Positions 3,158-31,921 of a DNA stretch of 47,096 nucleotides are shown piece after piece. Position 1 is the first letter of the stretch, and each line of letters begins with the position of its first letter. The notes below the pieces were generated by a model. It ran no database searches and had not been told where the DNA came from. It worked only from the letters and a program-made list of their open reading frames with translations. The translations under genes and the position numbers were made by a program. The DNA comes from a virus. The stretch spans positions 1 to 47,096 of IMG/VR virus record IMGVR_UViG_3300011400_000001; one strand, given 5' to 3'.

Positions 3158-3184
3158 AGTGCTGTTCATAAAATGAACAGGACG
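3158..3184 (-). promoter_or_regulatory. 27-nt intercistronic palindromic element, copy 1 (sense: CGTCCTGTTCATTTTATGAACAGCACT)
   Basis: Flush (0 nt) with the stop of 3185..4402 and 11 nt upstream of ATG 3147. Stem is 8+3+8 (CTGTTCAT/ATGAACAG) plus outer arms. Confidence 0.8.
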
Positions 3185-4402
3185 CTATGTAACTTCACCG
3201 TTCTTCTTCATTTCCTCATACTTCTTTTTGGCGATGAACATAGAGGTGAAGCCTTCGCCATTTTTAACGTTGGCCTTCACGAGGTCTCCGCAATCGGTCA
3301 TTGATTTGATTACCGAGTATTGCTCTCTTGGCTCGAAGTCTTTGGAGAGCAATTGACGAAAGACCGGCTCCGTTGTCAGCCCGCCCATCCTTTCTAGGAC
3401 GTCCAACGCCCTCATCATAGGAAGGGCGAGTTCGTTGCGGCCGGACGCTATGCTTAACTTCGGCATATTCGTCTCAAGGCTGTCTAAAAGCGAGGCACCG
3501 ACCTTGAGGTTCCCTGGTGTGATGATGCGGTGAGGTTCTTCTTCTCCGAGCGCCAACAGCATAGCTAGCTTTAAGAGTTGAATATGCTTTGACTCGTAGT
3601 AACCTTCCATTATATCGTCTTCTGGCGTCTTTAGCGTTGTATACCAAACATCAAAGAAACGCCGCGCTTCGGGGTCCCAGGAGAACGGGCCGACGATCTT
3701 TTCCACCTTGCGGAGGTGCTCTTGCATTAACTTCCAAAGCTGTGGGCCATTCGGCGGCAACGTTGGAAAGCTAATCTTCGGACCGCGGACCGTTTCATAG
3801 ACAAAGACAACCCTTCGTGAGAAGCCTCCTGAGATGATTTGCAACTTCAGCTTGTCGATGATCCAGTCGGGGGTTTCACACGCTAGCATGTTGACACAGG
3901 GATTGACGATATTCTCCAGCCCGCGCTTCAACGTCGAGGAATTAAAAACCTTCCCGCCTCGGTCATAAATGTCCGTGAGGAACTCAATCATCGCACCTGG
4001 ATTAAAGGAGAGGAAGTTCTTTAACTCGTTGATGAGGAGGGTGAAAGGTCGGAGTTCCTGTTGGGCGTTGTTTTCATCAGTATAAGAGAAAAGGCACTCG
4101 TCGCTGGCCATGAATTTGACGATGTCCTCGCGGGTCTGGATGGAAGCGGAGACCGGGTGTTCGGGAAAGGTAGACGTTAGGAGATCGCGTGATATATCTT
4201 TTGCAGTAGATTTACGCGATCCTTGCTTTCCTACAAGGCAGACGTAAAGATTCGGGTAGATGTTAAAATAGCCGTGGAACAAATGACAGCGGTTTGAAAT
4301 CGTTGACGCTAGTGCGACTAAGCCACACCAAATATGGAAGTTTCTTGGACACTCATTCCCGCTATTATAGGTAAGGTACCTATGAAGAAAAGAGTTTTCC
4401 AT
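3185..4402 (-). CDS. P-loop NTPase, DUF3987/VirE-like (SF3-type) putative replicative helicase/primase-associated protein
   Basis: 405-aa ORF with a deviant Walker A (LVGKQGSRKST), a Walker-B-like FTLLINELK and GGFSRRVVFVY. The overall pattern matches phage DUF3987-type replication NTPases and it lies in the replication arm. Confidence 0.5.
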   Translation of the reverse strand: MENSFLHRYLTYNSGNECPRNFHIWCGLVALASTISNRCHLFHGYFNIYPNLYVCLVGKQGSRKSTAKDISRDLLTSTFPEHPVSASIQTREDIVKFMASDECLFSYTDENNAQQELRPFTLLINELKNFLSFNPGAMIEFLTDIYDRGGKVFNSSTLKRGLENIVNPCVNMLACETPDWIIDKLKLQIISGGFSRRVVFVYETVRGPKISFPTLPPNGPQLWKLMQEHLRKVEKIVGPFSWDPEARRFFDVWYTTLKTPEDDIMEGYYESKHIQLLKLAMLLALGEEEPHRIITPGNLKVGASLLDSLETNMPKLSIASGRNELALPMMRALDVLERMGGLTTEPVFRQLLSKDFEPREQYSVIKSMTDCGDLVKANVKNGEGFTSMFIAKKKYEEMKKNGEVT

Positions 4403-4405
4403 AGT

Positions 4406-4846
4406 TTATTCATAAAACTCCACTAACAATTTTTCTACTTTATCTGCTGGTTCTAAAGAGAACTCTTTGAGAACCTGGACTAAAGCGGACTGTTTAGTTT
4501 GATACTGGTGGGCCACTCCTGGGTTTTCTTTGTCGGGAAAGTTTAGGAGTGCGAACGCTCCAAAGTATTTCTTGGCTGCTCTATTGTAAGCACGCGCGGC
4601 ATCTTCTTCAGTGTTAAAACTTCCTAGAAGGATAGGTTTGTAATCTCTGTGGTCCCATTCCTTTCCTTGTGGAGGTGGTCCCATAACAAAGTGGGAAAGA
4701 GGAATACTCTGTGTCTTCCCACCTGGCACACAAAAACTATGGTAGACTGACCCTCGAATACATGCCCAGTGAAGTTTTACTGCTTCATCGTACTTATCAG
4801 ACGGAACTATTATGTCTTGCCCGCACTTGCATTTGAATGTTTTCAT
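4406..4846 (-). CDS. AP2-domain DNA-binding protein with N-terminal Zn-ribbon-like motif (degenerate HNH-AP2 homing-endonuclease relative)
   Basis: ATG 4846 forms an ATGA overlap with the polymerase stop. AP2 signature ILLGSFNTEEDAARAYNRAAKKYFGAFALLNFP is present. N-terminus is MKTFKCKCGQ. Only a vestigial WDHRD remains where an HNH motif would be. Confidence 0.7.
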   Translation of the reverse strand: MKTFKCKCGQDIIVPSDKYDEAVKLHWACIRGSVYHSFCVPGGKTQSIPLSHFVMGPPPQGKEWDHRDYKPILLGSFNTEEDAARAYNRAAKKYFGAFALLNFPDKENPGVAHQYQTKQSALVQVLKEFSLEPADKVEKLLVEFYE

Positions 4847-7533
4847 ATGACACCTTTCGTTAGATTTCCCCAAGACTCTCCATACGCACCATCTTGAGGT
4901 ATGGTTATTTGTTGTTCTGCTATCATGAAAGAGTTGTCGAACCACTGTGGTATTTTTCTAGTTGCCCACTCGGTATCTTCAATTCTAAATTGACCTATTA
5001 AGGCATCATGCACTTGGTGAAGAGGCTCAATTTTTAACGAGCCATCGAGATTTCGGTTTTCGGGGTCCATCCAAAGCCTTAGCATCGCAGTATTTGTTGC
5101 TCTTGTTGTTATATACTGGGGTTCATGTGACAACACGTCACCCAATATCTCATTAGCACGACCAAAGAATCGACGAGTGTGGCCGCCGTCACAGACTAAC
5201 TCTGGTTTTTTTGCAATCTTGCGGGCGGTGGCTTCGTGCCACAGACGGAGTCTATAGGCTGAATGCACTGCATTATGGAAGTCCTTAACATCATTGCGGC
5301 TCAGTGCTACTTTGCCAGCAGACTCTTGAAGAATTTCATTGGCTAGTAAATCGGGACCCATAGTGTAGGCGCATCCCCAGATACCTACCTTTGAAACGAA
5401 GTACTGCCATGAATCCTTTTTGACGGACTTTAGCAGTTCCTTAACCTCTTCGCGGCTCTTTCCTTGAAGGGAACCGTTGCCGTTCATTAGCATGTAAGCA
5501 ACTCTGGCAGCAGGCTTGATACCGAAGCGAAGGTCGTCCAGCATGGCGGGATCGCCAAGAGCGTTGAGGTGGGCACCAATAGTCCAACCATCGCTCCCCT
5601 TCAAATCACATTGGAACATGTAATAACCTTCGTCTGCTAGAAACAAGTCTCGCATACCACGGTGTAGTGGATGGTTTTCCGGTCTTAGGTTATCATTATC
5701 AGGGATCGTTTGTAAGTTGTAACCGGACCCTGTAGGAGAGGAGTAGCAAGTTAGCCTACCAGTTTTAGTTCCGACACAATTATACCCACATCTTATCCTT
5801 CCGTCTTTATCAGCGTAGATAGCCAACATTTGAGACCTTGTCCGTAACTCACCAATATCAATAATAAATCGTAACGCGGGATGGTCCGATTTCTTACTGA
5901 GTTTCAGCAATGCTTCGTAATCGGTTGTTGGTTGCTTAGTGGTCCTATGGTATTGCACTGGCAACTTAAGGGTATCATAAAGGTAGGTTTTGAGAGCCCC
6001 ACCCTTTGTGTTAAGGCCAAGGTCACAGGTCGTTTCGATATAACCTACCTCTTCCTTTGAAAGCGGTCCCTCGCCGAGAAGAATACGGATAACTTTATCA
6101 TAGTCTTGCTCGAACTCTTTCCTCGGACGAGAAGGGTCTTTTTTGTATTCCATGATGGATCGCACCTGTGCGAGAAGGCCCGACCGAGGCTGTTTGGTGT
6201 CGAGAAAGCGACCAGCGAGACGGTTGAGGTCGTACTGCAAGTTGTAAATGACGTTGTTGACCTCCTTCAACCGCTTTTTGGAGAGGTCAGTAGCATAACG
6301 AATACCCCTCAACTCCATGTAAAGTAAGGGATTCAACATTGTCATGTTGAAACGGTAGTGGTCGTGCTGTGGCGGTTTGAGGAAGCCATCCAGCTTTTGA
6401 CTGATTTCCATTGTCACCGCGCTATCGCGGCAGCAATATCGGTAGAAGGTATCCTGATCGTTCGATTCGCTGTCTGACTTATAGAAGGGTTCAGCTGTGT
6501 AAAGACTGCACTGAAACCCAAGGCTCTTTTCCAACTCGCAATAAAGCTCGTGGTGCTTGAGCATTGTATCGTCACGGACGTTCGACACAAGACATCCGTA
6601 GCTATATTGTAAGACGAAACGATCATAAAGGCTGTTTTGTAGCGTCTTAGACACAGTCGGATCAGCGAGAAGATTTGCAAGTGCTCTCCAAATGGCTACC
6701 TCTTCGTCCTGTGTCCAGTAAGAGGAGCCGTCCAGCCTAGCAAAAGGCACAATAAAAGAATAGTCTTTGCTTGGCGCTACGCTGATGCAGGACATTGAAT
6801 CAATGTAACCTTCGATGTCGATGGAAACGCTTGCGTGTTCCGCTCGAAGCCGTTCCAGCTCTTCAACGATAGCGATGGCAGACTTCGTTATGCAAAGAGT
6901 TCGTGAAGGAACGTTAAGGGAAGGGGAGAGACCTTCGGTCGCGGCCTTTTTGAGATCGAACGTGAGCAAAGGCATCCACTCGTATTGACGCAAGCAAGCC
7001 GCCGGATGGTGTGCAGCAACACATTTCCAACCTTTGGGGCTAAGAAACAAAGAGCCGCGCCAATCCGATATGCTGTTGGGGAAGATGAACCGTCCATTGC
7101 GGAGAGGCGGTTCTTCGTTGCCGACCTTTAAGACATGAAGGGCGGTAGCACCGAGACAGACAACTAGGTTTGGTTTGTATTCGTAGAGGTCTTTGTAGAG
7201 TCTCTCGATACCGCTTTGGATTTCGGGACTGCTCCAAGAAAAGCGTGCGATCTCGTTGGCAAGGGGTCGATACTGACAAACATTGCCAATGAAGCACGCC
7301 TCACGGACGATGTTTGCCTTACCGAGAAGGGCGGAGAGTAGCCTTCCTGACATGCCAACAAAGGGTTCAAGTACGTATTCTTCGTCTTTTCCCGGAGCTT
7401 CACCAACAATTGCAATGCGGTAGGGAAAGCCGGTAAGGGAGGGAAACTTATTGGGAACGAGGGTCTTTGGACCGGCTTGGGTGGGTTCTTCTTCAGAAAA
7501 CTCAGCAAGGTGAGACGTTTTAGACTTTGGCAT
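4843..7533 (-). CDS. Family-4 UDG-like domain fused to family A DNA polymerase (3'-5' exo + pol)
   Basis: 896 aa. UDG-like motifs: IVGEAPGKDEE, PFVGMSGRLL, HHPAACLR. Exo motif: SIDIEGY. PolA motifs: DLKGSDGWT (A), RLTCYSSPTGSGYNLQTIP, HQVHDALIGQF (C). Confidence 0.9.
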   Translation of the reverse strand: MPKSKTSHLAEFSEEEPTQAGPKTLVPNKFPSLTGFPYRIAIVGEAPGKDEEYVLEPFVGMSGRLLSALLGKANIVREACFIGNVCQYRPLANEIARFSWSSPEIQSGIERLYKDLYEYKPNLVVCLGATALHVLKVGNEEPPLRNGRFIFPNSISDWRGSLFLSPKGWKCVAAHHPAACLRQYEWMPLLTFDLKKAATEGLSPSLNVPSRTLCITKSAIAIVEELERLRAEHASVSIDIEGYIDSMSCISVAPSKDYSFIVPFARLDGSSYWTQDEEVAIWRALANLLADPTVSKTLQNSLYDRFVLQYSYGCLVSNVRDDTMLKHHELYCELEKSLGFQCSLYTAEPFYKSDSESNDQDTFYRYCCRDSAVTMEISQKLDGFLKPPQHDHYRFNMTMLNPLLYMELRGIRYATDLSKKRLKEVNNVIYNLQYDLNRLAGRFLDTKQPRSGLLAQVRSIMEYKKDPSRPRKEFEQDYDKVIRILLGEGPLSKEEVGYIETTCDLGLNTKGGALKTYLYDTLKLPVQYHRTTKQPTTDYEALLKLSKKSDHPALRFIIDIGELRTRSQMLAIYADKDGRIRCGYNCVGTKTGRLTCYSSPTGSGYNLQTIPDNDNLRPENHPLHRGMRDLFLADEGYYMFQCDLKGSDGWTIGAHLNALGDPAMLDDLRFGIKPAARVAYMLMNGNGSLQGKSREEVKELLKSVKKDSWQYFVSKVGIWGCAYTMGPDLLANEILQESAGKVALSRNDVKDFHNAVHSAYRLRLWHEATARKIAKKPELVCDGGHTRRFFGRANEILGDVLSHEPQYITTRATNTAMLRLWMDPENRNLDGSLKIEPLHQVHDALIGQFRIEDTEWATRKIPQWFDNSFMIAEQQITIPQDGAYGESWGNLTKGVI

Positions 7534-7666
7534 AGGGTTGTGCGTTTGGTGGGCTTGGGTCGTTCGGCTCCTTCACGACCACCTGTGGCTTCCTATTTGA
7601 TTGGCGTTCTGTCTACGCTAGGAGTCCGGTCGCGTTGGGTTGCTTTACCTATCCAGACGCCCAACA

Positions 7667-7864
7667 TCATATTTCATAATCAACAGTACTAATAGCTTGT
7701 ATTAACTGATCCTTAACTCCTTCAGGAAGTTCTTCAAATTGTACTGGCCTTATCATACCACTATCGGTAAAACACTTATGGATGTGGAGAATGGTCGTGC
7801 CTGCAACAAGAGCTTCGTAGGTGTCGTCCCAGTGACTGAGGTAGAGGTAGCGACGTGTGGCCAT
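7667..7864 (-). CDS. Hypothetical protein (65 aa)
   Basis: The ORF starts directly adjacent to the stop of the upstream MTase gene (7865) and is co-oriented in the operon. No motif recognised. Confidence 0.5.
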   Translation of the reverse strand: MATRRYLYLSHWDDTYEALVAGTTILHIHKCFTDSGMIRPVQFEELPEGVKDQLIQAISTVDYEI

Positions 7865-9328
7865 TTACTTAAAGACCGAATTGGGGTTGAGAGACTTGTA
7901 ATGTTGGCGAAGGTTTTCGAGAAGGGCGTTGTAATGTTCGGTGTTGCTTTCGCAGCCGATGACGTTCCTTTCCATCTTGAGTAGGGAGATGACACCGCTA
8001 CCATGTCCGGCGAAAGGTTCAAGGACGAGGTCTCCGATCCGTGAGGTATGCCGTATCATAAACTGCCAGAACTTGAACGGCTTCACGAAAGGATGCCGCA
8101 TTTGGTCTTTCATTTCGTCATGTGAGGCGACAAGATGTGAAACAGAGCTTTTCTCCGCAAGCTGGGCGTTTCCTTTCCGGCAGACCATAGCGATTTCGGT
8201 ACTCTTTGTATAATTGTAGTTTGCGGCATTATTCATGCAAACGTGTGTCTTAACCCAGGTGAGAGGCCAACGTTGCACAGCAAAGCCAGCCTTGACTGCT
8301 TCGTTGTAAAGAAACTGCCATAACATTTGATCCGCACAAAGGACAAGGAAGCCAGGGTCGGAGAGGCAGCGGTACGCAGAGGGGAAGAACTTCGTTAGGA
8401 GAGCTACATTATCATCGACCCCGTGTTCGTCTGCCACCGTGTCGATATTAACCATGCCAACGTTGTCTTGCTTTAGCATGTCCATATCAATGGCGTAGGG
8501 TGGATCAGTGATGACGGCAGCGAAGCGTTGATCAGTTTCGTTCATGAAGGTGAGGCAGTCAACGTTATGGAATTTCGAGGAAAGGTAGATCGTGCTTTTG
8601 AGTTCGCTCAGGCGGCGGACCTTTTCGGATAAGTATGCTTCGTACGAGCCGGGCGGGTTATGGGGATTTGCGTAGTACTTCTGCTTTTGTTCGTCCAAGG
8701 CGGAAGGTTCCGCTGAAACCTCCGCTTCGAGCTTCTGTGTTTCCGCTGCGTCTTTGGCTTGCTGGTCGGCCAACGCTTTTTGCTTTCGCGCAAGTTCGGC
8801 TTCGACCAATGCAAGGTTGCGGTTGTTAATGATTAACAAGGCTGCCGCTAGGCTATCCGCTTCCCACATGGGACTCTTAGAGTCGTTGCGCAATTCGGAA
8901 GCTACGGCAAGACATTGAGAAACCGCTCCAAGGGACATGTTCAGCAATGCGCCAGTTTCCCGTTGGCCCCACTGCGCTCCTTGGAGGAAGGCTCCTTTAT
9001 ACTTCAAGAAGTGAATCTTAGCGATAGCAATGCAACGTTCCTGCCATGATCTATCTTTGCGACGGACATCCTCTTCCAGTTCCATCTCTTGCAGTTCGTC
9101 TTCGGACAATGTCTCTCGGTAGGCGACGTCGATTTCAGTCCAACCGAGCTGTTGGGCTGCGGTTAGGCGACGTTTCCCTGCGATGAGGCGGTTTTCTTGG
9201 TTAAGAATAATGGGCTGAATTAACCCATAGCGTTTTAGGCTTTCTGCCAACTCTTCGATGTTACCGAGGTCGATACGCTGGCGGTCGATGACCTTAATGC
9301 TTGTAATAGGAAGTCTTATGCGGTTCAT
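7865..9328 (-). CDS. ParB-like nuclease domain fused to beta-class DNA amino-methyltransferase (N6-A or N4-C)
   Basis: ParB/Srx motif LIQPIILNQENRLIAGKRRLTAAQQLGW. MTase motif IV (ITDPPYAI) precedes motif I (LVLEPFAGHGSG). ATG 9328 is preferred over the track's GTG at 9370. Confidence 0.85.
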   Translation of the reverse strand: MNRIRLPITSIKVIDRQRIDLGNIEELAESLKRYGLIQPIILNQENRLIAGKRRLTAAQQLGWTEIDVAYRETLSEDELQEMELEEDVRRKDRSWQERCIAIAKIHFLKYKGAFLQGAQWGQRETGALLNMSLGAVSQCLAVASELRNDSKSPMWEADSLAAALLIINNRNLALVEAELARKQKALADQQAKDAAETQKLEAEVSAEPSALDEQKQKYYANPHNPPGSYEAYLSEKVRRLSELKSTIYLSSKFHNVDCLTFMNETDQRFAAVITDPPYAIDMDMLKQDNVGMVNIDTVADEHGVDDNVALLTKFFPSAYRCLSDPGFLVLCADQMLWQFLYNEAVKAGFAVQRWPLTWVKTHVCMNNAANYNYTKSTEIAMVCRKGNAQLAEKSSVSHLVASHDEMKDQMRHPFVKPFKFWQFMIRHTSRIGDLVLEPFAGHGSGVISLLKMERNVIGCESNTEHYNALLENLRQHYKSLNPNSVFK

Positions 9329-9441
9329 GTTTGTAGGCTTAGTTGAATGGAACGAGAGAAACTCTACCACCGTACCAGAGCACTAAAGCACGGGCAGGGT
9401 AGCCGAATACCTTAGCCAAAGGCAGCGGTGGTAGAAAGGAA

Positions 9442-9532
9442 CCAACACCCCCACATAGCCAGGCGTTTGACATAACGTTCCTCTAGCGACGGCGTCGTCG
9501 AACGTCGGAACGCGATGCTGTGGGGGTGTTGG
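9442..9532. repeat. Perfect 14-bp inverted repeat CCAACACCCCCACA / TGTGGGGGTGTTGG enclosing 63 nt with an inner CGACG-G-CGTCG palindrome
   Basis: Arms at 9442-9455 and 9519-9532, within the 184-nt intergenic gap 9371-9554. Confidence 0.7.
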
Positions 9533-9554
9533 GGAAATATGTTTTTACACCGTT

Positions 9555-9866
9555 TTATCGCAGTTTCTCCAACAGAGCGTCGGTGTGAATTACGCACGTG
9601 AGGTAGACGAGGTCTTCCTTCGACCAAGAGTTGAACTCCTCAAGGAACGCCTTGCCAATCATCAGCCCGTGGAGCTTTTTGTTAGGAAACCCATGAGCGG
9701 CAATCACGGGCGTGAAACGGTCGCGGATAGTCCGCGTTGCAAGCATAGCCCGTCCCATGATACGCTGGTCCTCCGTTTCGGGTGCGGCCTTTTGAGGAAA
9801 GGCTTTGCCAACGATGTCATTAACAATACGTTGACGCTCTTCTGGCGTGGGATTAGTGGTGCTCAT
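9555..9866 (-). CDS. Hypothetical protein (103 aa)
   Basis: Internal ATG 9866 forms an ATGA overlap with the stop of the upstream gene (9863). No motif recognised. Confidence 0.55.
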   Translation of the reverse strand: MSTTNPTPEERQRIVNDIVGKAFPQKAAPETEDQRIMGRAMLATRTIRDRFTPVIAAHGFPNKKLHGLMIGKAFLEEFNSWSKEDLVYLTCVIHTDALLEKLR

Positions 9867-11161
9867 TGTATATCTTTGAGTATGAAGAAAAGGTTGTCGA
9901 GGCTGCATTGGAAACCACACGCTCCTTTATGTCCTCCGCCGCCTTCTGCCTTTGCAAGAACGGAAAGGTCGATCTCTTCATGTTCGGGGGCATGATACAA
10001 CGATACCGTTGCTTTCTTCTGCTGACCGTCGTAGCGCCACGCCATAAGTGCTTTGTGGTGGGGTTTGATACCGGCGGCGAAGGCTTGTGAACCCGAAAGG
10101 CCGTTGCAGCAAAGGAAGGTGATGCCGTGCCAGTAAACGTCGTGACCGATCTTTGTAATCGTAGAGGCGTTGGCTCTGTCCCGTGACTGCTTTGCCCGAA
10201 CTCCTAACTTAATACAATCGTCGAGGATTTGGTTTGCGAGTTGTTCGTTGTTTAACTGTGCTCGAACAAGGCTAGCAAACTCTTCTGGTTCGAGTTCCCT
10301 AAGACCCGATTGCAGGATGAGAGCACGTTCGTCACGGTGGTCCCAGATGTCGTGCTCACCAGCAAGGCGAATGAGAAGAGGTTCGTCAACCGTTCGGTCG
10401 ATGTAATGTTCTTTTGTAGTTGGCAGCTTGTTCTTATCGCCAAGGAACCATTGCCACACTAGCCGACATGCCGCGACGCCGTCGATGCGATAGCCAGGTA
10501 TGGTAGAGTCGAACTGGTCGATGGCCGTTTTGTGATGGTCAATCCAGATAAGGTTCGGCAGTTTCTGTTGATCCATTAGTTCGGGAATGCTAATGTCGAC
10601 GAGGAAGATACTGTCCCAGTTGAAAGCGTCCACCTCTGGGACAGGCTTGCCGTAGTCCCAACCAATGGATTGGACAACGTTGTCGCCGTGCGAAAGGAAG
10701 TGGCGGCAGACTTCGTTGCTGAGAAGGCCGTCATAATCGGCGTCGTGATGTATAACTAGGTATTTTTTCATGTTAGAAGGGTTCGTTAGGGTCTCTCGGA
10801 CGCGAATCATCTCCTCAGAAGGTTTATCATATTCCGGCCACCGACCGTGCTCTAGCATGGTGGCGATGATGCAGTAGTTTGAGATGTCACGAAAGGAGTC
10901 TTCGATGGACTCGTTGATGGCCTTAAAGCGGCGGTTGTTGAAGATATGTTTTAATCTCTCGAATTTGTCGTTGGCGCGAACAATCACGCCAAAAGGTCCG
11001 AAGGCACACATGTTGCGTGGGCCGTAGTCTAGTTGCTTCTGGTCAAACAGAAGGGCGTTCTGTAACGCGATCTCGATAAAGTCGACAGCCGCGTCGGTTT
11101 TACAACCGAGCCGAGTAGCGACGTCCTTTGCAAGACTGTCAGGGATGGTTAGTTTGTTCAT
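9863..11161 (-). CDS. Fusion of all-alpha NTP-pyrophosphohydrolase/DUF1599-like domain with DHH-DHHA1 phosphoesterase (NrnA/Pde2-sized, RecJ-superfamily)
   Basis: N-terminal half: QLDYGPRN..NDKFERLKHI..ESIEDSFRDISNY. DHH motifs: VIHHDADYDG, LVDISI, IWIDHHKT. DHHA1 motif: GGGGHKGACGF. ATG 11161 is preferred because the track start at 11197 is TTG. Confidence 0.75.
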   Translation of the reverse strand: MNKLTIPDSLAKDVATRLGCKTDAAVDFIEIALQNALLFDQKQLDYGPRNMCAFGPFGVIVRANDKFERLKHIFNNRRFKAINESIEDSFRDISNYCIIATMLEHGRWPEYDKPSEEMIRVRETLTNPSNMKKYLVIHHDADYDGLLSNEVCRHFLSHGDNVVQSIGWDYGKPVPEVDAFNWDSIFLVDISIPELMDQQKLPNLIWIDHHKTAIDQFDSTIPGYRIDGVAACRLVWQWFLGDKNKLPTTKEHYIDRTVDEPLLIRLAGEHDIWDHRDERALILQSGLRELEPEEFASLVRAQLNNEQLANQILDDCIKLGVRAKQSRDRANASTITKIGHDVYWHGITFLCCNGLSGSQAFAAGIKPHHKALMAWRYDGQQKKATVSLYHAPEHEEIDLSVLAKAEGGGGHKGACGFQCSLDNLFFILKDIQ

Positions 11162-11262
11162 TTCAAGAAGTGGATGGTGATGATTGTTAATGTCCAAGCT
11201 AGGGCTACACTTATCAATGCCGTAACAAGGAGTACCGCATTCTTAGTTTGGTTGCCATTCAT
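11158..11262 (-). CDS. Possible 34-aa single-pass membrane peptide (MNGNQTKNAVLLVTALISVALAWTLTIITIHFLK)
   Basis: Hand translation: ATG 11262, TGA 11160-11158, forming an ATGA overlap with ATG 11161 of the next gene. It contains one clear hydrophobic helix. It competes with the alternative TTG-extended start of the DHH gene. Confidence 0.35.
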   Translation of the reverse strand: MNGNQTKNAVLLVTALISVALAWTLTIITIHFLK

Positions 11263-11320
11263 AGTGTGGAAGGCAGACTGTTCCCGGTCTGCCAGCAGGT
11301 GGGGTTGGTTGTCAAAAGCA

Positions 11321-11347
11321 GGTGCTGTTCATTTTATGAACAGGACG
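11321..11347 (-). promoter_or_regulatory. 27-nt element, copy 2 (sense: CGTCCTGTTCATAAAATGAACAGCACC)
   Basis: Flush (0 nt) with the stop of the SSB-like gene (TAA 11350-11348). Confidence 0.8.
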
Positions 11348-11794
11348 TTACTTCTTAGCCACGAAGGAATGCACTTCGCTACGTGGCTCATAGATACTAC
11401 CTGTCTCCGGATCAGTGCGCTCTTGGGAGACGCTTGTCTTGACGTTCACAACCCGGCCCACAAGCTGTTGCGGGTTGTTGATGATGTCACGAGCCGTAAC
11501 GCCGCGAATCTCTGCCGCTTGTGCGATTTTGGCAATATTCTTACCGATGTCGACAAGTTGCATCTTCTCAGTTGGTGTGATTACCAGGTTGTGGGTCAAC
11601 GTAAAACTTTGGACCATGTCTCCCTTAATGGATTGTTTTGGGGAAGTGGCCTGTAGCGAAACCACGATCATTTCGCCACCTTTTTTAGTTGGCTTCTTTT
11701 CAGTCTTGGTAATCTTAAACTCGTGAATCCCGGCGGGGATGATGGGGTAACTTATATCTATATCACTAACATTTGTGTCTAGAGGATCGGTCAT
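11348..11794 (-). CDS. DUF669-like phage single-stranded DNA-binding protein (putative)
   Basis: 148 aa. The N-terminal pattern IPAGIHEFKITKTEKKPTKKGGEMIVVSL is typical of DUF669 proteins that pair with Sak4-like ATPases. It is preceded by a long CA-rich leader and followed at 0 nt by element copy 2. Confidence 0.5.
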   Translation of the reverse strand: MTDPLDTNVSDIDISYPIIPAGIHEFKITKTEKKPTKKGGEMIVVSLQATSPKQSIKGDMVQSFTLTHNLVITPTEKMQLVDIGKNIAKIAQAAEIRGVTARDIINNPQQLVGRVVNVKTSVSQERTDPETGSIYEPRSEVHSFVAKK

Positions 11795-11850
11795 ATGTTT
11801 TTTGTTTGTTTTTGGTTTATGTTTGTGTTTTGTTTCTTTCTCTCCACTCT
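11795..11850 (-). promoter_or_regulatory. CA-rich, G-poor unstructured 5' leader of the SSB-like gene
   Basis: The minus-strand sequence before ATG 11794 reads aaacaaaacacaaacataaaccaaaaacaaacaaaaaacat, almost entirely A and C. Confidence 0.4.
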
Positions 11851-11963
11851 TGGAGATCGTTTAGTTCTAGACAAGGCTTTCTTCCTCTTGGATTGCCTCG
11901 TCCTTTGTGGAACATATCTTGCTCAGTTTTATGGCTCCGAGCGTAGCACATTTGCGGCTTGCG

Positions 11964-17419: not shown

Positions 17420-17446
17420 CGTGCTGTTCATTTATTGAACAGAACG
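17420..17446 (-). promoter_or_regulatory. 27-nt element, copy 3 (sense: CGTTCTGTTCAATAAATGAACAGCACG)
   Basis: 18 nt upstream of ATG 17401 (Zn-ribbon gene) and downstream of compound hairpins. Confidence 0.75.
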
Positions 17447-21469: not shown

Positions 21470-21496
21470 AGTCCTGTTCAAGAAATGAACAGCACG
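21470..21496 (+). promoter_or_regulatory. 27-nt element, copy 4 (AGTCCTGTTCAAGAAATGAACAGCACG)
   Basis: In the divergent control region, 15 nt upstream of ATG 21512. Confidence 0.75.
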
Positions 21497-22477: not shown

Positions 22478-22504
22478 CGTCCTGTTCATTTCTTGAACCG
22501 CACG
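22478..22504 (+). promoter_or_regulatory. 27-nt element, copy 5 (CGTCCTGTTCATTTCTTGAACCGCACG)
   Basis: In the non-coding gap 22208-22754, between convergent genes. Confidence 0.75.
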
Positions 22505-23126: not shown

Positions 23127-23716
23127 ACGCTTCTATTCGCTTAGCCTTCTCGGCCTCCGAGGTTCTCTAAGCTGGGGATAGCATATCACGTGGCCAGCAT
23201 TCCGCAAGGGATTATTTCATTTATTCTTCGTTCGTTCGCGCGCAGACGGCGCAAGGGCGGTTGCTTCGGGCGGCTGCTGCACAGCAATCCGCGTGCCATC
23301 GCTGATGCCTGATGGTTCAGGCATTTCTGTCACGACAGAAACCCCGCCCACCCCTCGCATCCCCTACGCTCGCGGAGGGTGGGGGGACCCACCTCACTCT
23401 CGGACCACCTGGGAAACTTTGGAATCGTATAAAAGATCAAAGAAATAAATCTTCGCAGAGGCTTCGCTACGCCCAGCCTCGGAAAATAAGGATAATGTAT
23501 TTGTCGACAAAAAGCCAGGCTGGGCTTAGGCTGATTGCATGGTAGCAGCAGAAGAAGTCTATCCGGCAGAGATTCTTCCAAACACCCGCCTTACAGGAGA
23601 GGTTGGGGAAGAACTTGGGCCGCGCTTGAAGGCTTTATTGCTGGCGCAGCCGCTGAACCCGCTTCAGCGCCTCGTCTTCCGCGAACTGCCCTCTCGCAAT
23701 GCTGAGGTCAAAGAAA

Positions 23717-24060: not shown

Positions 24061-24288
24061 ATGACCGTCGATCAGCTAAAAGGTCAGCTTAGGCCGTTTC
24101 GGCCATTCTCACTGCATTTGGACGACGGCACAATACTTGATCTACCTCACCCGGACTTTATTACTTTCCTGAGCGAGAAAGCGGGGAACAACTTTGTTTT
24201 GGTCGACCGGTCCGGCGGCATCCATTTGGTCGACGCGGGACACGTGAATAGGATTGAATTCGTAAAAAATGGGAGCGTAGTAAAATGA
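24061..24288 (+). CDS. Hypothetical protein (75 aa)
   Basis: ATGA overlap with the terS-like gene at 24285-24288. Confidence 0.5.
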   Translation: MTVDQLKGQLRPFRPFSLHLDDGTILDLPHPDFITFLSEKAGNNFVLVDRSGGIHLVDAGHVNRIEFVKNGSVVK

Positions 24289-24848
24289 ATGGCGATCCAA
24301 ACATTCTTCTTTCTGACTACGTCGAGGCAGCATCTCCGCCCTCCAGTGCGGTTCATAATCTGAACAGCACGAGCGAAGCCGGGCAGCCACGCCCGTTGCA
24401 ATCCGATCCTCGACCCCTCTTCAACGCCCGCGACCCACAGTACGTCTTGCAGTCTGAGAGGCCGGTTCACCGCGCTATCATCTTCCTCGCCGCCCAAGGG
24501 CTTTCCTATATCGAAGTGGCGCAGCAGCTCGGCATCACACCGAGCTGTGTGCAATATGTGGTGAAGCAAGACTGGGCGCAGGAGGAAATCCTTAAACAGA
24601 TTCATGAAAACGGCGGCAATGCCGTCGCGCAGGTTCTGTCGCAGCAAGCTCTCCCAAGCGTGATGAAGTTGATTGAACTTCGGGACAATGAGAAGGTGGC
24701 GGCGGAGGTTCAACGGAAGAGTGCAAATGATCTCCTTGACCGCATCTTCGGCAAGCCTAACCAGCCCGTGACTCACAGCCAGGCCGATCTGAATGAGTTG
24801 TCCGACGAAGAGCTTGCGAAGATTGCAGCACCGGCTCAGCGGAACTAA
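24285..24848 (+). CDS. terS: Terminase small subunit-like HTH protein
   Basis: HTH LSYIEVAQQLGITPSCVQYV, plus the C-terminal pattern AAEVQRKSANDLLDRIFGKPNQ typical of small terminases. It lies upstream of terL. Element copy 6 lies within codons 21-29. Confidence 0.55.
   Translation: MNGDPNILLSDYVEAASPPSSAVHNLNSTSEAGQPRPLQSDPRPLFNARDPQYVLQSERPVHRAIIFLAAQGLSYIEVAQQLGITPSCVQYVVKQDWAQEEILKQIHENGGNAVAQVLSQQALPSVMKLIELRDNEKVAAEVQRKSANDLLDRIFGKPNQPVTHSQADLNELSDEELAKIAAPAQRN
24345..24371. promoter_or_regulatory. 27-nt element, copy 6 (AGTGCGGTTCATAATCTGAACAGCACG; both arms GTGC-type, no orientation)
   Basis: Lies inside codons 21-29 of the terS-like ORF (SAVHNLNST). Confidence 0.65.
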
Positions 24849-27293: not shown

Positions 27294-27320
27294 CGTCCTG
27301 TTCATTAAATGAACTGCACT
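27294..27320 (+). promoter_or_regulatory. 27-nt element, copy 7 (CGTCCTGTTCATTAAATGAACTGCACT)
   Basis: 10 nt after the terL stop. Its right arm supplies ATG 27309. Confidence 0.75.
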
Positions 27321-29753: not shown

Positions 29754-29757
29754 CATT

Positions 29758-30819
29758 ATGCCAGAAGACACAGATACTCTCGACGCAGAAACGGACGTAG
29801 AAACTACGACCGATGTGGATTCGTCAACCACGAATGACGTTAAAGACAAGGACAAAGCCGCCCCGTCAGCGGACAAAGATGACAAAAAGACCTTGGCCGA
29901 TGTTGTCAAAGATGTCGTCGCCAAGCACAAGTCGGACTCATCAGCCGACAAGGGAGAGAAAGTGGACGAAGAAAGCGACGCTCAGACAGAGCCTGACGCT
30001 GACAAGTCCGCTGAGAAGGACGAAGAAAAGGACACCACAGCAGATAAGAAAGATGAGGTTGCGTTGGATGAGAAGGACAAAACCCTTCCCTTCCATAGCC
30101 ACCCTCGGTTCCGCGAGGTCATCAAAGAGCGAGCTACCTTTAAGCAGGAGGTTGAAAGCTTGAAGCCCGTTGCACAACGAGCGCAGGCTATCGACCAATA
30201 CTGTCAGAAACATGGTATCTCCGACGAGGAGTTCAATTCGGCCATTCAGCTAACGGCCCTATTGCACACCGATCCGACGAAGGCACTCGATGCGCTTCGT
30301 GCCTACGTTGACACCCTTGAAGTATCGCTGGGCAATAAGCTGCCAGCAGACCTTCAGAAGGAGGTCGACGACGGCACTCTGTCCTTAGAGCGGGCGAAGG
30401 AACTTACCGATGCTCGCATTAGGAACCAAGGGTTGGAGCACACCTCGAAGAAGTCCGAAGCCCAGGTTGCGCAGGAAAGGTCCAACGCGATCACGACAGC
30501 GGTCAACTCCTGGGACAGCCAGAAGCGCGCTTCCGATACGGCGTACGACAAAAAGTACCCCCTTATCGAGAAAGCCTTTATTGCGCTGTGCTCGATGAAC
30601 CCGCCTCGGAACCCTCAAGAAGCCGTTACCCTCGCGGAAAAGGCTTACGCAGAGGTTAATACTGCGATGTCCGCATTCGTCCCGAAGCCCCCTACCCGAA
30701 AGGTTTTGAAAACTAACGGCTCTGTCACAAAAGGTGTTATCGACATCAAGCCCGGTATGAACTTGAAAGAGGCACTCCCATTGATTGCTCGGAAGGTTCT
30801 GGCGGAGCATACTCGGTAG
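29758..30819 (+). CDS. Scaffolding protein
   Basis: 353 aa. The N-terminal half is highly acidic and lysine-rich low complexity, and the C-terminal half looks helical. It lies between portal and capsid. Confidence 0.6.
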   Translation: MPEDTDTLDAETDVETTTDVDSSTTNDVKDKDKAAPSADKDDKKTLADVVKDVVAKHKSDSSADKGEKVDEESDAQTEPDADKSAEKDEEKDTTADKKDEVALDEKDKTLPFHSHPRFREVIKERATFKQEVESLKPVAQRAQAIDQYCQKHGISDEEFNSAIQLTALLHTDPTKALDALRAYVDTLEVSLGNKLPADLQKEVDDGTLSLERAKELTDARIRNQGLEHTSKKSEAQVAQERSNAITTAVNSWDSQKRASDTAYDKKYPLIEKAFIALCSMNPPRNPQEAVTLAEKAYAEVNTAMSAFVPKPPTRKVLKTNGSVTKGVIDIKPGMNLKEALPLIARKVLAEHTR

Positions 30820-30841
30820 CACAAAGAAAGCAAAACATTGT

Positions 30842-31891
30842 ATGGCACTCGGATTAGCAGTAGCTTCAGACATTGCAAATGCGGCCTTGACGTTCTACGT
30901 TCGAGGCGGCACGTTATTGCAAACAATGCAGGAGCGTCCCTTGCTCCGCATATTGGAAGCCGCGAAGGAGACATTTCCTGGTGGCAAAGACAACATTAAC
31001 CTTCCCGTCCAGGGAGCGGTGATGTCCGACACGGCGGGATTCTTTGCAGGGTATACGGAAGATGACGCCTTCACGTTCACACAGGCTCAGAACATGCTTC
31101 GCGCCGCGTATCCGTGGAAAGAGCTGCACGCCGGTCTTATCATCTCTTGGACGGAGTTGAAGAAGGACGGGGTGACGGTCACAGATAGCATGAAGACGTC
31201 GGACCATTCCGAAGTGGAGCTGACGCGGCTCACGTCTATCCTTCAGAACAGGTTGCAGGATTATGGCGAATCGTGGGCACGTTCCATGAACAGCATGTTG
31301 TGGAATGATGGTAGCCAGGACGCGAAAGCGATTCCGGGAATGAAGTCGATCCTCACAGCCTCATCTGCCGTGGGCACAACCGGAGGATTGAACCGCGCAA
31401 CGTACGCATGGTGGCGGCATCGGACCCTTGTGGGTGCCTCCGCTATTGCGCCGAGCGAAGCTAATCAGACGTTGTCGAAAAGGCTTCGCTCCGAACTTCG
31501 TCAGCTTCGGCGGTACCAAGGCAAGCCCAATCAGGCATTGGCTGGTAACGACTTCATCGAAGCTCTTGAAATGGAAGTGCAGTCCAAGGGTATCTACACC
31601 CAGGAAGGCTTTACCAACGAGGGTAAGACTGATCTCGGTATGGCGAAGATTCGTATGCGGGGGCTTGGCACCTTTGAGTACGACCCGTCGCTCGATGATG
31701 CAGGCCAGGCAAAGTATTGCTACATCTTCGACGACCGGCGGGTTAAGCTCCGTCCAATGGAACAGGAGGACAATAAAATTCTGACACCTGAAAGGCCGTA
31801 TAACTATGCAGTGTTCCTGCGTAGCATGACCTATACAGGAGGACTTGTTTGTGACCAACTCAACGCCAACGGCGTGTACCAGGTTACCTAA
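30842..31891 (+). CDS. Major capsid protein
   Basis: 349 aa from ATG 30842 (MALGLAVASD...). Its position follows the scaffold gene. Element copy 8 lies 3 nt after the stop. Confidence 0.75.
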   Translation: MALGLAVASDIANAALTFYVRGGTLLQTMQERPLLRILEAAKETFPGGKDNINLPVQGAVMSDTAGFFAGYTEDDAFTFTQAQNMLRAAYPWKELHAGLIISWTELKKDGVTVTDSMKTSDHSEVELTRLTSILQNRLQDYGESWARSMNSMLWNDGSQDAKAIPGMKSILTASSAVGTTGGLNRATYAWWRHRTLVGASAIAPSEANQTLSKRLRSELRQLRRYQGKPNQALAGNDFIEALEMEVQSKGIYTQEGFTNEGKTDLGMAKIRMRGLGTFEYDPSLDDAGQAKYCYIFDDRRVKLRPMEQEDNKILTPERPYNYAVFLRSMTYTGGLVCDQLNANGVYQVT

Positions 31892-31894
31892 CCG

Positions 31895-31921
31895 CGTCCT
31901 GTTCATTTTCTGAACCCTACG
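31895..31921 (+). promoter_or_regulatory. 27-nt element, copy 8 (CGTCCTGTTCATTTTCTGAACCCTACG)
   Basis: 3 nt after the major capsid stop and 8 nt before ATG 31930. Confidence 0.75.

Follow-up and report, generated by a model that had tools for sequence, protein, structure and literature searches.

A palindromic gene-boundary element in a clade of soil phages, a candidate site for a phage-encoded dimeric DNA-binding protein

A 27-bp imperfect palindrome, xGT[GC]C[TG]GTTCA-N5-TGAAC[AC]G[CG]ACx, occurs exactly nine times (S1 to S9) in the window, the whole stretch of 47,096 nucleotides analysed here, which is the complete, circularly assembled genome (46,973 bp) of an uncultivated 47-kb soil phage. 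Our results support a genuine, selected, gene-boundary signal that is specific to this phage clade. Judged from sequence, the element looks more like a docking site for a protein on DNA than like an RNA hairpin. The best explanation, to which we would give about an even chance, is a double-stranded DNA recognition site for a phage-encoded symmetric (dimeric) DNA-binding protein. We infer that a protein binds, which protein it might be and what binding would do. A preliminary description had read the element as a dedicated punctuation code; the selected gene-boundary signal and its strand bias stand, but RNA structure as its basis is not supported.

Nine copies in a compact genome

The genome is 92% coding and 8% non-coding. 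Searching for CTGTTCA-N5-TGAACAG with up to three mismatches gave 10 matches against 2.16 expected, a number reached in none of 100 shuffles, and the family-invariant skeleton GT-N4-TTC-N7-GAA-N4-AC, with no mismatches, returns the same nine sites and no others. The nine copies described earlier are thus confirmed by both pattern and skeleton. Eight of them are non-coding (permutation, P < 1e-5), and the element is the sole over-represented intergenic motif; neither canonical promoter consensus sequences nor terminators are enriched in the window.

Three copies are on the minus strand. S1 (3158..3184) lies 0 nt past the primase stop (3185-3187), at the convergent end of the replication arm, where the giant gene ends 166 nt away (2992); equivalents follow the primase gene in related genomes (L numbers; L079 7504, L080 14288, L082 10565, L085 16599). 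S2 (11321..11347) lies 0 nt past the stop (11348-11350) of an SSB-like (DUF669) gene, with equivalents at L080 6548, L081 7183, L082 85, L083 8989 and L085 9005. S3 (17420..17446) is upstream of a UvrD-type helicase gene, with the ATG of a small ORF (17401) 18 nt on; its equivalents are L026 2871 and L076 3216, both with reversed asymmetry, L077 3061 and L024 1071. The remaining copies are on the plus strand. S4 (21470..21496; equivalents L076 6817 and L077 6870) marks the edge of the divergent control region, 15 nt 5' of the ATG of the first plus-arm gene, whose 231-aa product has no assigned function. S5 (22478..22504) falls between the convergent genes 21512-22207 (+) and 22755-23126 (-). 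A minus-strand ORF over S5 was rejected as spurious, its similarity to an L026 ORF being only the element-encoded peptide; this leaves S5 in non-coding DNA between converging genes, with no unambiguous local direction. S6 (24345..24371) occupies codons 21-29 of a terS-like HTH gene, in a poorly conserved linker, and equivalents are found at the same intragenic position (L026 9460, L029 1268, L078 9507) or just 5' of the terS-like ATG (L076 9266, L077 9257). S7 (27294..27320; equivalent L024 11536) starts 10 nt after the large-terminase stop. The best-conserved position across relatives is that of S8 (31895..31921), a degenerate copy in the gap between the capsid-position gene (30785-31891), whose stop is 3 nt away, and the next ATG, 8 nt further on, with equivalents at L029 7837, L026 16533, L076 15689, L077 15560 and L024 16286. 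S9 (43527..43553), which is beyond the span 3158-31921 given in the preliminary description, overlaps the stop of a tail-region gene and lies 7 nt before the ATG of the 2134-aa giant gene, and its equivalents L079 13697 and L080 21533 share its reversed polarity. The 3' arm of S9, CAGGAC, gives AGGA 10-13 nt 5' of the giant-gene ATG.

All stop-to-element distances claimed earlier (S1, S2, S7, S8 and S9) were re-derived. The start distances also stand for S9, S8, S4, S3 and, at 10-11 nt, S1, but the ATG said to overlap S7 belongs to a doubtful 73-aa ORF. Of the non-coding copies, most take up the space from a stop codon to the following start; S6 is intragenic. The placement of copies between modules is a fair description, albeit a subjective one. 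The 27-bp palindromes would occupy the only room available in a 92%-coding genome, namely cistron gaps and the disordered linker of one protein, and this limited room largely explains the seemingly precise spacing.

Conservation and strand bias across relatives

We aligned 48 copies from nine genomes. Ten positions (G2 T3 T8 T9 C10 / G18 A19 A20 A25 C26) are invariant in 48 of 48. The spacer, 85% A/T, is 5 nt in 47 of 47 copies, and other spacings from 0 to 12 gave at most one match each. Every copy is complementary over its inner 5 bp and outer 2 bp, with changes between genomes falling on both sides, whereas columns 4/24, 5/23 and 6/22 lack pairing in 31, 17 and 24 of the 48 copies (65%, 35% and 50%), with no compensatory changes within any genome group. 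The inner arm reads GTTCA in the window, L026, L029, L076, L077/79 and L085, ATTCA in L024/80 and L082, GTTCG in L078/81 and GTTCT in L083. Both arms switch together and genome-wide, a concerted change that argues for a trans-acting reader evolving along with the site. Two hybrid copies in the ATTCA phage, L024 6783 and L080 14288, have a GTTCA-type right arm. Perfect or near-perfect palindromes occur at L026 7377, L077 3061 and 6870, L078 8372 and L024 5584.

Relatives with as little as about 45% protein identity keep copies behind the SSB-like, primase and capsid genes and at the terS-like 5' end, and the element itself is kept where flanking genes have diverged to 65-78% DNA identity and about 45% protein identity. 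Copies have been gained and lost among relatives, and the genomes are mosaic relative to the window (L024/80: TerL 77%, PolA 60% identity; L077/79: TerL 62%, PolA 74%). Across 185,579 bacterial and archaeal species genomes the motif is enriched in none; the 22 scattered single matches are about what chance predicts. The reader is therefore probably phage-encoded.

Read in gene direction, S1-S5, S7 and S8 have the form CGT(C/T)C...GCAC, S6 is symmetric at the polarity position and S9 is reversed, giving a bias of seven of eight asymmetric copies in the window. The polarity claimed for seven of nine copies holds, but for S5 only as far as its ambiguous direction allows. On the coding strand of the 48 copies, unpaired positions are pyrimidine/pyrimidine in 41 cases and purine/purine in 16, so transcription direction matters. 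The correlation of the strand bias with transcription is real but imperfect: across relatives the bias persists without being strict, since reversal is seen in three genomes for the copy preceding the giant gene and in two for the S3 equivalent. The C/C mismatch that had been called conserved is restricted to the window and its closest relative, the position being mostly a G-C pair in L026, L076 and L077.

Candidate readers and competing explanations

Two conserved HTH proteins of the clade could be putative readers. One (7865..9370, minus strand) is a fusion of a ParB N-terminal domain (ParB_N) with a beta-class N6/N4 DNA methyltransferase; it also contains a predicted helix-turn-helix-like segment, WGQRETGALLNMSLGAVSQCLAVASEL, and a long helix. 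It adjoins the polymerase gene and was found in all relatives whose corresponding region was obtained. By sequence comparison, its recognition-helix residues appear to follow the motif variant in part: SQ, NQ and NF occur with GTTCA and NN with ATTCA (two genomes), the latter a prediction borne out in the independently chosen L082, but NY occurs with both GTTCG (L081) and GTTCT (L083), and NF with GTTCA in L085. A profile search of the HTH region gave no significant match to ParB DNA-binding domains. The other candidate (24285..24848, plus strand) is the TerS-like HTH protein (HTH_23, phrog_2538). In six of seven genomes a copy of the element lies in the first 90 nt of its gene or no more than 28 nt upstream, and the terS copy resembles an insertion of 9-20 codons; L024 has none. 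The TerS-like helix does not track the variant. No integrase, repressor, transposase or RAYT-like gene was recognised among the approximately 30 ORFs scanned (early, 22.7-24 kb and most tail-region genes had no match or lay outside the scan), and neither Pfam/PHROG matches nor a DxDxD motif revealed a phage RNA polymerase.

Conserved sequence without conserved pairing, the rigid N5 spacing and the retention of a copy in the terS-like ORF where the protein sequence is unconserved all favour a double-stranded DNA site. The half-site would be bipartite, GT followed by three loosely specified bases and [G/A]TTC[A/G/T]; the centres of the two inner half-sites are separated by exactly 10 bp, with the A/T-rich spacer between them. 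Binding would most likely control traffic over gene boundaries. The bound protein would stand in the path of host RNA polymerase as a roadblock, or insulate against it, much as at L5 stoperators; the places concerned would be the 3' sides of the SSB-like, primase, terminase and capsid-position genes, the convergent junctions and the head of the packaging operon. The strand bias could then reflect either a directional requirement of the roadblock or selection against palindrome folding in mRNA or a stray AGGA. However, a purely symmetric operator would not require the mismatch bias that the coding strand shows, 27 bp is long for a simple HTH dimer, and neither candidate's recognition helix tracks the motif cleanly. 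The two-sided arm changes fit a hairpin equally well. RNA punctuation or terminators would also show placement after stops, behind genes of probable high expression and between converging genes.

Indeed, a transcribed hairpin with an internal mismatch, recognised by a phage or host factor and serving mRNA processing, attenuation, 3' or 5' end protection or the setting of next-cistron translation, would suit copies lying in transcribed gaps 0-10 nt past stops and 7-18 nt before starts. Attenuators or stabilisers typically sit in places like those behind the SSB-like and capsid-position genes or between converging genes, and the absence of enriched canonical terminators or promoters means that the phage needs another signal. 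The mismatch bias by coding strand and the constant complementarity of inner and outer pairs also agree with it. We nevertheless consider this reading unlikely, as it is the stem sequence and not its pairing that is kept, with three of ten stem positions showing neither retained pairing nor compensation. Predicted coding-strand hairpins range unevenly from -1.9 to -17.4 kcal/mol (post-capsid copy: -5.4 in the window, -3.7 in L024) and are weaker in sense than in antisense in 32 of 41 non-tied copies (32:9). Protein-bound RNA hairpins usually present the opposite of a variable loop on an invariant helix; the element, with its unconserved loop and invariant helical parts, reverses that pattern. 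RNase III substrates require about two helical turns, for which this stem is too short and interrupted. As had been stated, no downstream T-tract is present apart from a weak TTTT 6 nt after S2, which supports the conclusion that the element is not an intrinsic terminator. One copy sits within an essential-looking ORF, and hairpins 0-3 nt past a stop would presumably be melted by the ribosome terminating there, whose footprint covers them. Polarity is opposite in the S9 class and in two S3 equivalents, and Rfam has no match.

A quite unlikely variant of protein binding is that the ParB-HTH-methyltransferase dimer loads at the palindromes, perhaps as an NTP-dependent clamp, and spreads or slides, so that phage DNA is selectively methylated or distant genes are silenced and the site has no direct role in the local transcript. 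The conservation and domain layout of the fusion, the confirmed NN prediction and the absence of sites from cellular genomes speak for it, as do precedents: short palindromes are recognised by ParB-family proteins, and KorB loads at OB sites scattered over plasmid RK2 (PMC11790492), Cluster O phages pair the same TGTTC-N7-GAACA architecture with a ParB_N protein (PMC4351075), and ParB-methyltransferase fusions are frequent in phages, where they have no known function (PMC12704722). But helix tracking is incomplete, the HTH region lacks a ParB profile match, the ParB sites known so far are palindromes of 13-16 bp that have no unspecified 5-bp spacer, Corndog gp90 has only the ParB_N domain in common, and the model alone explains neither strand bias nor conserved positions. 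Mosaicism, the two hybrid copies, copy gain and loss, the insertion-like terS copy and reported recombination between Cluster O repeats (PMC4351075) would agree with linkers for module exchange among co-infecting relatives, or with a small mobile palindrome spread by insertion, neither having a regulatory role. This is very unlikely, as a 27-bp sequence that varies at some positions offers little length for homologous recombination, copies keep their places down to about 45% protein identity, the scanned ORFs include no recognised transposase or RAYT-like gene, no host-genome reservoir was seen, and genome-wide concerted switching with invariant positions implies selection by a reader. The terS copy might start packaging, other copies being auxiliary or alternative pac-like sites bound by TerS. 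TerS proteins commonly bind in or near their own genes, and the TerS-like protein has an HTH, a small-terminase PHROG match and a nearby copy in six of seven genomes. Yet pac phages with nine dispersed initiation sites are not known, the copy is missing in L024, the helix does not track the motif, and the sites after the SSB-like, primase and capsid-position genes have no packaging logic; we regard this as highly improbable. Least probable of all are phage-specific promoters, T7-like in role. The element is the only over-represented intergenic motif where no promoter consensus is enriched, but several copies are (near-)perfect palindromes and carry no direction, the S9 class is reversed, copies lie 7-18 nt from start codons and no phage RNA polymerase was detected by Pfam/PHROG matches or a DxDxD motif.

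Comparison with known systems

T7 promoters are asymmetric 23-bp sites read by the phage RNA polymerase, and the sites for RNase III form extended, irregular hairpins (about 20 bp or longer) that conserve structure rather than sequence. Like both, the element is a phage-specific conserved sequence at cistron boundaries that splits the genome into expression units. Unlike T7, no phage RNA polymerase was detected here, and with the RNA-structure reading unsupported, the earlier comparison with these sites holds for placement only and not for mechanism. REP/BIME and T4-type PeSL elements are likewise imperfect palindromes repeated between cistrons in a strand-aware manner; REPs, implicated in mRNA stability, are host-genome repeats mobilised by RAYT transposases, and PeSLs, implicated in modular recombination, include an early promoter. 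Here there is no host reservoir, no RAYT among the scanned ORFs and no recognisable early promoter.

Cluster A stoperators (L5 gp71 and relatives; PMC9283540) are also many copies of a short sequence in short intergenic spaces genome-wide, specific to an immunity group and oriented with transcription, and the protein bound to them halts elongating RNA polymerase. Such stoperator-like arrest is the mechanism we consider most likely for the element. Stoperators, however, are asymmetric 13-bp sites whose binder is a monomer carrying two DNA-binding domains, whereas ours is a 27-bp dyad; their orientation is strict and needed for function, whereas here it is a tendency with a conserved exception; and L5 is temperate with its repressor as binder, whereas no integrase or repressor was recognised among the ORFs scanned here. 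RK2 (IncP) KorB OB, ParB parS and Noc NBS sites (PMC11790492) are dispersed short palindromes on mobile genomes with a ParB-family HTH reader, some distant from promoters, and this clade encodes a conserved ParB_N-HTH fusion. They differ in being contiguous 13-16 bp sites with neither a 5-bp free spacer nor outer GT/AC, and the candidate binder here is fused to a methyltransferase.

Among known systems, the nearest to the element is the 17-bp dyad-symmetric repeat 5'-TGTTCGGNNNCCGAACA of Cluster O mycobacteriophages (Corndog and relatives); the authors of the paper on it infer that a dimeric protein binds this DNA and question whether it takes part in transcription initiation (PMC4351075). Those phages are unrelated actinophage siphoviruses of 70 kb and high GC, with 34 copies against nine here, invariant 7-mer arms, no outer GT...AC element, no degenerate zone, no reported lineage-specific variants or transcription-linked mismatch bias, and a Corndog gp90 that is not a methyltransferase fusion. 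What the two systems share is the TGTTC-N7-GAACA core with its A/T-rich centre, dispersed copies mostly in short intergenic gaps or at gene 5' ends and some in ORFs, absence from the host genome, positions largely kept among relatives, an orientation preference (only slight in Cluster O) and an encoded ParB_N-domain protein.

Placement of the element in the window and its relatives

The element, a 27-bp imperfect palindrome of the form xGT[GC]C[TG]GTTCA-N5-TGAAC[AC]G[CG]ACx (columns numbered 1–27), is present in the window in nine copies and no more, S1–S9 in coordinate order between 3158 and 43553. A repeat finder and two pattern searches agree on this number, and no shuffle reached the observed count. 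Eight of the nine copies fall in non-coding sequence, in a genome with a coding fraction of 92% (P < 1e-5), and the same tendency is seen in relatives. S6, in the terS-like gene, is the sole copy truly within an ORF. The protein sequence around it is conserved, with an N-terminal block MNGDPNILLSDYVEA upstream and a block PRPLFNARDPQYVLQ downstream, and there is no alternative start. A minus-strand ORF around S5 was rejected as an artefact, its similarity to a relative's ORF being limited to the peptide that the element specifies, which leaves S5, like S1, in a non-coding gap between convergent genes. All distances to stop and start codons quoted in the preliminary description were reproduced. 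Genes in this genome normally overlap or sit a few bases apart, and a gap holding a copy consists of the element plus a short ribosome-binding spacer. The precise spacing emphasized in that description is thus largely the result of a 27-bp insert in a compact genome. Taken together, the element is a real, strongly selected, clade-specific cis element, placed as had been described.

Relatives were identified by protein searches with TerL, PolA and the ParB-methyltransferase, which revealed a large uncultivated clade, and up to ~22 kb of sequence around those genes was sampled from eight further genomes. The element was found in all eight, at recurring positions. The copy after the capsid-position gene (S8 type) is present in 6/7 genomes where the region was seen, and the copy at the 5' end of the terS-like gene, either inside it or immediately upstream (S6 type), likewise in 6/7. 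Other recurring copies follow the primase gene, where the replication arm ends convergently (S1 type), and the SSB-like gene (S2 type), or precede the helicase gene (S3 type), the gene for a 231-aa protein (S4 type) and the giant gene (S9 type). Copies are gained and lost among relatives; S7, after TerL, is common to the window and contig L024 only. The flanking genes share 65–78% DNA identity with relatives, and L085, an IMG/VR relative whose ParB-methyltransferase is only ~45% identical, has nevertheless kept the S1 and S2 positions. Divergence from the relatives was too great for BLASTN alignments to place recombination breakpoints relative to the copies. More distant TerL relatives (~45% identity, IMG/VR and JGI) do not carry the element; their operators form ordinary clustered arrays.

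The clade abounds in soil metagenomes, with hundreds of homologues and no cultured member, and the related contigs are largely of soil-metagenome origin. No cultured phage is close: Megablast returned nothing, TerL identity to cultured phages is below 40%, and no close relative was found among GenBank phages by near-identical or protein-level searches. An identical polymerase is found on a 47,114-bp database contig. Other dyads were seen in more distant relatives. Contig L084 carries three dispersed catGCCCAAA(A/T)TTTGGGC dyads at 1125, 4305 and 15826, and tandem operator arrays, each in one region, occur in L003 (2366–2420) and L055 (2441–2916), with CGTTACGAAnnnCGTAACG and TAGGAC-N5-GTCCTA. 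A motif scan of IMG/VR gave mostly unrelated single matches. An unrelated viral contig of 66% GC, L022 (IMGVR_UViG_3300022562_000309), has 13 copies of GTTCAC-N3-GTGAAC in 13.6 kb (1330–13116); they lie mostly ~20 nt upstream of leftward start codons and again show a GTTC-N7-GAAC architecture.

Genome context and expression signals

Bases 1–123 are an exact duplicate of 46974–47096, and the window is therefore a circularly assembled genome with a 46,973-bp unit. The leftward arm (3185 to ~21000) encodes a primase, an HNH protein, a family-A DNA polymerase with a UDG-like domain, a ParB_N-methyltransferase fusion, a DHH/DUF1599 protein, an SSB-like protein, a Sak4-like ATPase, a PD-(D/E)XK nuclease and a UvrD-type helicase, followed by uncharacterised early genes. 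The rightward arm holds the gene for the 231-aa protein, a short leftward cluster, and the genes for the TerS-like HTH protein, an exonuclease, the large terminase, and the head and tail. The 231-aa protein, whose gene is bordered by copies, has no family match and no PDB match. A giant ORF of 2134 aa (43561–47096 and 1–2992, plus strand) spans the assembly junction; its product is without a Pfam match and without an RNAP-like DxDxD motif, and counterparts in relatives range from 1370 to 2303 aa. Within this ORF, an 86-nt repeat at 44689 and 46783 (71% identity) encodes two ...KAAQERAASERGQTGAIRPEGSERR-like segments. Two further repeat families have three copies each, TCGGTCGCGGCCTTTT at 2055, 6935 and 9778 (plus strand, two exact) and CTTTCGCTGACGCTCGC in the early and divergent region at 20412, 20481 and 21072 (plus strand).

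The polymerase (4843–7533, minus strand) has an N-terminal uracil-DNA-glycosylase-superfamily domain at residues 39–185, a fusion that is kept in hundreds of metagenomic homologues. Relatives of a tail-region protein of ~140 aa (36453–36878, plus strand) carry a response-regulator receiver domain, PF00072 (from 21405 in L024 and from 21502 in L026), and a neighbouring gene has a pilin-like N_methyl motif. The gene directly 3' of S8 (31930–32496, plus strand) starts with MKKTILGLILFGAIWAAFS in our own translation, which looks like a signal peptide and is unusual right after the capsid-position gene.

In window scans, sigma-70 promoters, intrinsic terminators and Bacteroidota -33/-7 promoters were not enriched and had no association with the copies. 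The start regions of 41 genes are A-rich upstream, and a Shine-Dalgarno-like sequence is found in only ~10 of them. The host may make little use of Shine-Dalgarno pairing; the Bacteroidota promoter motif is nonetheless not enriched. Rfam and tRNA scans of the window found nothing. Two sigma-54-type -24/-12 matches, TGGCATAGGAAATGCT and TGGCACGCGGATTGCT, lie at 21158–21173 (plus strand) and 23283–23298 (minus strand). Both are non-coding, one facing the 231-aa gene and the other the leftward gene 22755–23126, and they are the only two matches to TGGC[AC][CT]N5[TA]TGC[TA] on both strands, against a chance expectation estimated at ~0.4. These matches hint at a sigma-54-bearing host. L024 has a similar TGGCATGATTGATGCC in its own divergent region. 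Just 3' of the 231-aa gene (22250–22338), a 13-bp inverted repeat, GGTAGGGGCATGG ... CCCATGCCCCTAC, is followed ~25 nt on by a run of 13 T (22326–22338), and might serve this gene as a conventional terminator. The phage proteins scanned included no recognisable phage RNA polymerase, integrase or repressor. A search for a phage RNA polymerase able to use the element as a promoter, N4-type hairpin promoters included, gave no Pfam or PHROG match and no DxDxD in the giant protein or other long ORFs.

Anatomy of the site and its candidate readers

In an alignment of 48 copies, ten columns are invariant: G2 T3, T8 T9 C10, G18 A19 A20 and A25 C26. The inner pentamers are 5 nt apart in 47/47, any other spacing returning at most one match, and the spacer is 85% A/T and otherwise unconserved. 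Changes in columns 7/21 and 11/17 are always two-sided and occur between genomes only, in every copy together. Columns 4/24, 5/23 and 6/22 vary inside genome groups without compensation, with non-standard pairs in 31/48, 17/48 and 24/48 copies, respectively. A conserved C/C mismatch had been proposed at column 4/24. This column is unpaired in eight of the nine window copies and in both copies of L029, but most copies in L026, L076 and L077 have a G-C pair there, and in these genomes the mismatched column is 6/22 instead. As judged from the alignment, what characterises the family is a degenerate zone of three positions flanked by two invariant blocks rather than a specific mismatch.

Four versions of the inner arms exist. 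GTTCA...TGAAC is found in the window, L026–29, L076, L077/79 and L085, ATTCA...TGAAT in L024/80 and L082, GTTCG...CGAAC in L078/81, and GTTCT...AGAAC in L083. Each genome uses one variant across all its copies. The sole exceptions are two hybrids in an ATTCA phage (L024 6783–6809 and L080 14288–14314), in which a left arm GTAGGATTCA is joined to a GTTCA-type right arm, TGAACCGCAC or TGAACCACAC; they could be footprints of within-element recombination between phages of different variants. To look for a prophage or a reservoir in host genomes, we also scanned 185,579 bacterial and archaeal species, each represented by a single genome. The 22 scattered single matches are about what chance predicts for the pattern, no genome is enriched, and the scan gave no clue to the host. 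The putative reader of the element is thus likely to be phage-encoded and to co-evolve with the phage.

Seven of the nine copies were also described as sharing one polarity in the direction of their genes. Seven do read CGT(C/T)C...GCAC, out of the 8 that are asymmetric; S6 is symmetric there and S9 is reversed. Unpaired cells on the coding strand of the 48 copies are pyrimidine/pyrimidine in 41 cases, purine/purine in 16 and mixed in 15, a bias to which no exact probability is given since orthologous copies are non-independent. Each of the three genomes in which an S9-type copy was seen (window, L079 at 13697, L080 at 21533) has it reversed, the S3 equivalents of L026 (2871) and L076 (3216) are reversed as well, and several copies are perfect palindromes. 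The transcription-linked asymmetry is real, then, but not absolute. By analogy with stoperators, in which reversal of the site abolishes the block (PMC9283540), it is possible that the bias reflects a directional requirement. It is also possible that selection favours a less stable palindrome on the mRNA, since pyrimidine/pyrimidine mismatches are the most destabilising. A further possibility is avoidance of AGGA on the mRNA, with S9 excepted: its reversed arm CAGGAC puts AGGA 10–13 nt before the ATG of the giant gene in the window, and the same arm is present in L079. A replication-centred polarity, with S9, S1, S2 and S3 in one sense, S4–S8 in the other and an origin near 20 kb, is left as speculation because cumulative GC skew has no switch and two S3 equivalents disagree.

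We favour a duplex-DNA protein-binding site as the reading of the element, and put its chance at about even. If two symmetric half-sites are read in the major groove of duplex DNA, helical segments should be invariant while the loop and an internal zone are free, as is the case here; the rigid one-turn spacing and A/T-rich centre are likewise as predicted. The preliminary description had proposed a transcription or RNA punctuation code; an RNA-hairpin mechanism is one that we consider unlikely and that the comparative data do not favour. The coding strand is predicted to fold, at -1.9 to -17.4 kcal/mol, around an inner stem, GUUCA/UGAAC, that is A/U-rich. The best-conserved position, after the capsid-position gene, has some of the weakest hairpins (-5.4 kcal/mol in the window and -3.7 in L024). 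In 32 copies the coding strand folds less stably than the antisense strand, in 9 more stably, and 7 are tied. In protein-bound RNA hairpins the unpaired bases are usually the conserved ones, and the element has the opposite pattern. Two-sided arm changes do not discriminate, as a palindromic operator and a hairpin both predict them.

That the copies are not intrinsic terminators, as had been stated, was borne out: they lack a stable G+C-rich hairpin, no T-run follows eight of the nine (S2 has TTTT 6 nt downstream), and the window terminator scan gave no enrichment and listed none of them. For RNase III processing, some two helical turns (roughly 20 bp) of largely double-stranded RNA are required, with conservation of the structure. 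The stem here reaches no more than 11 pairs, and 35–65% of copies have interruptions at columns 4–6. The copy retained inside an ORF argues against terminator, processing-site and stabiliser roles, as do the copies that start 0–3 nt 3' of a stop codon, inferred to be within the footprint of the terminating ribosome. No part of the window attains the gathering score of any Rfam family.

If the element is a DNA site, two conserved HTH proteins of the clade are the obvious candidate readers, the ParB_N-HTH-methyltransferase and the TerS-like protein (24285–24848). The former (7865–9370) has a clear ParB_N domain; it matches the N-terminal domains of Noc, Spo0J and ParB and beta-class N6/N4 methyltransferases, and is predicted to have a helix-turn-helix followed by a long helix, with helices at 122–129 and 133–148. 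A single weak sequence match, 6t1f (E = 1.6e-4), reaches over a ParB DNA-binding domain, the profile search stops short of that domain, and Foldseek matches of the AlphaFold model are dominated by the methyltransferase domain. In a first set of proteins, the residues of the putative recognition helix were SQ or NQ with GTTCA sites, NN with ATTCA and NY with GTTCG. We then picked two further homologues (L082, L083) by helix type alone. The NN prediction was confirmed, with ATTCA sites at the S1 and S2 positions of L082, whose protein is 59% identical to the other NN protein. The NY prediction was half right, the sites of L083 being GTTCT rather than GTTCG. An NF protein with GTTCA sites (L085) is a counter-example. 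Judged on these sequences, tracking of motif by helix is suggestive but incomplete. The TerS-like protein has a copy at the 5' end of its own gene in 6/7 genomes, which might resemble the arrangement of an autoregulated or pac-binding protein; its recognition helix does not cleanly track the motif variant.

ParB-methyltransferase fusions are frequent in phages and have been reported without a known function (PMC12704722). It is conceivable, though improbable in our estimate, that the palindromes are dedicated loading sites by which the phage's own ParB-HTH-methyltransferase recognises the phage chromosome as 'self'. The methyltransferase would be recruited only to DNA bearing the phage-specific 27-bp sites, and clamp-like spreading from them would lead to modification or silencing of the phage genome. 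Site and reader would then co-diversify among related phages, like an immunity or incompatibility code.

Comparison with known systems

Some known classes of repeat do not fit. REP/RAYT elements are disfavoured by the single scattered matches in the 185,579 species genomes and by the lack of an HUH protein or transposase among the phage proteins scanned. As for promoters of a T7- or N4-type phage RNA polymerase, searches detected neither an RNAP domain nor a DxDxD motif, the 2134-aa protein included, and several copies are perfect palindromes. KorB OB sites (PMC11790492) offer the parallel of a mobile genome on which a ParB-family protein reads dispersed palindromes. However, parS, OB and NBS are contiguous palindromes of 13–16 bp, whereas the element is 27 bp long with bipartite half-sites around an unspecified 5-bp spacer. 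If the ParB-methyltransferase is the reader, site-directed loading would be tied to DNA modification.

Stoperators are the best mechanistic counterpart for an orientation-linked protein block at gene boundaries. Here too, many copies of one site lie in short intergenic gaps genome-wide. Stoperators are asymmetric monomer sites (PMC9283540), whereas the element is a dyad with partial asymmetry, and its orientation does not strictly follow transcription. If the reader acts as a roadblock, stoperator-like punctuation would be extended to a lytic-looking phage with a symmetric site.

The nearest description to the element is that of the 17-bp repeat TGTTCGGNNNCCGAACA of Cluster O mycobacteriophages, with 34 copies in Corndog and an A/T-rich centre (PMC4351075). 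Those copies lie mostly in short intergenic gaps or near gene 5' ends, with none in the host genome, and the authors inferred an unidentified dimeric DNA-binding protein with unclear consequences (PMC4351075). A TGTTC-N7-GAACA core, an A/T-rich centre, dispersal and lack of cellular enrichment are common to both, a shared description that does not imply homology. Cluster O phages also encode a ParB_N protein of ~500 aa, which has only that domain in common with the protein here. Dispersed phage-specific dyad repeats are thus already known, yet unexplained there, and if the 'self'-marking idea were true it would give widespread phage ParB-methyltransferase fusions a new function and explain the orphan repeats of Cluster O too. 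The comparative evidence from this clade makes a co-evolving, phage-encoded reader with genome-wide sites a testable claim, and the lineage-specific variants and the small number of candidate readers allow it to be tested directly. Beyond what is reported for Cluster O, the element has gene-boundary positions held across deep divergence, four lineage-specific versions in which both arms are switched in every copy of a genome, a fixed skeleton and spacing, and a measurable link to the direction of transcription.
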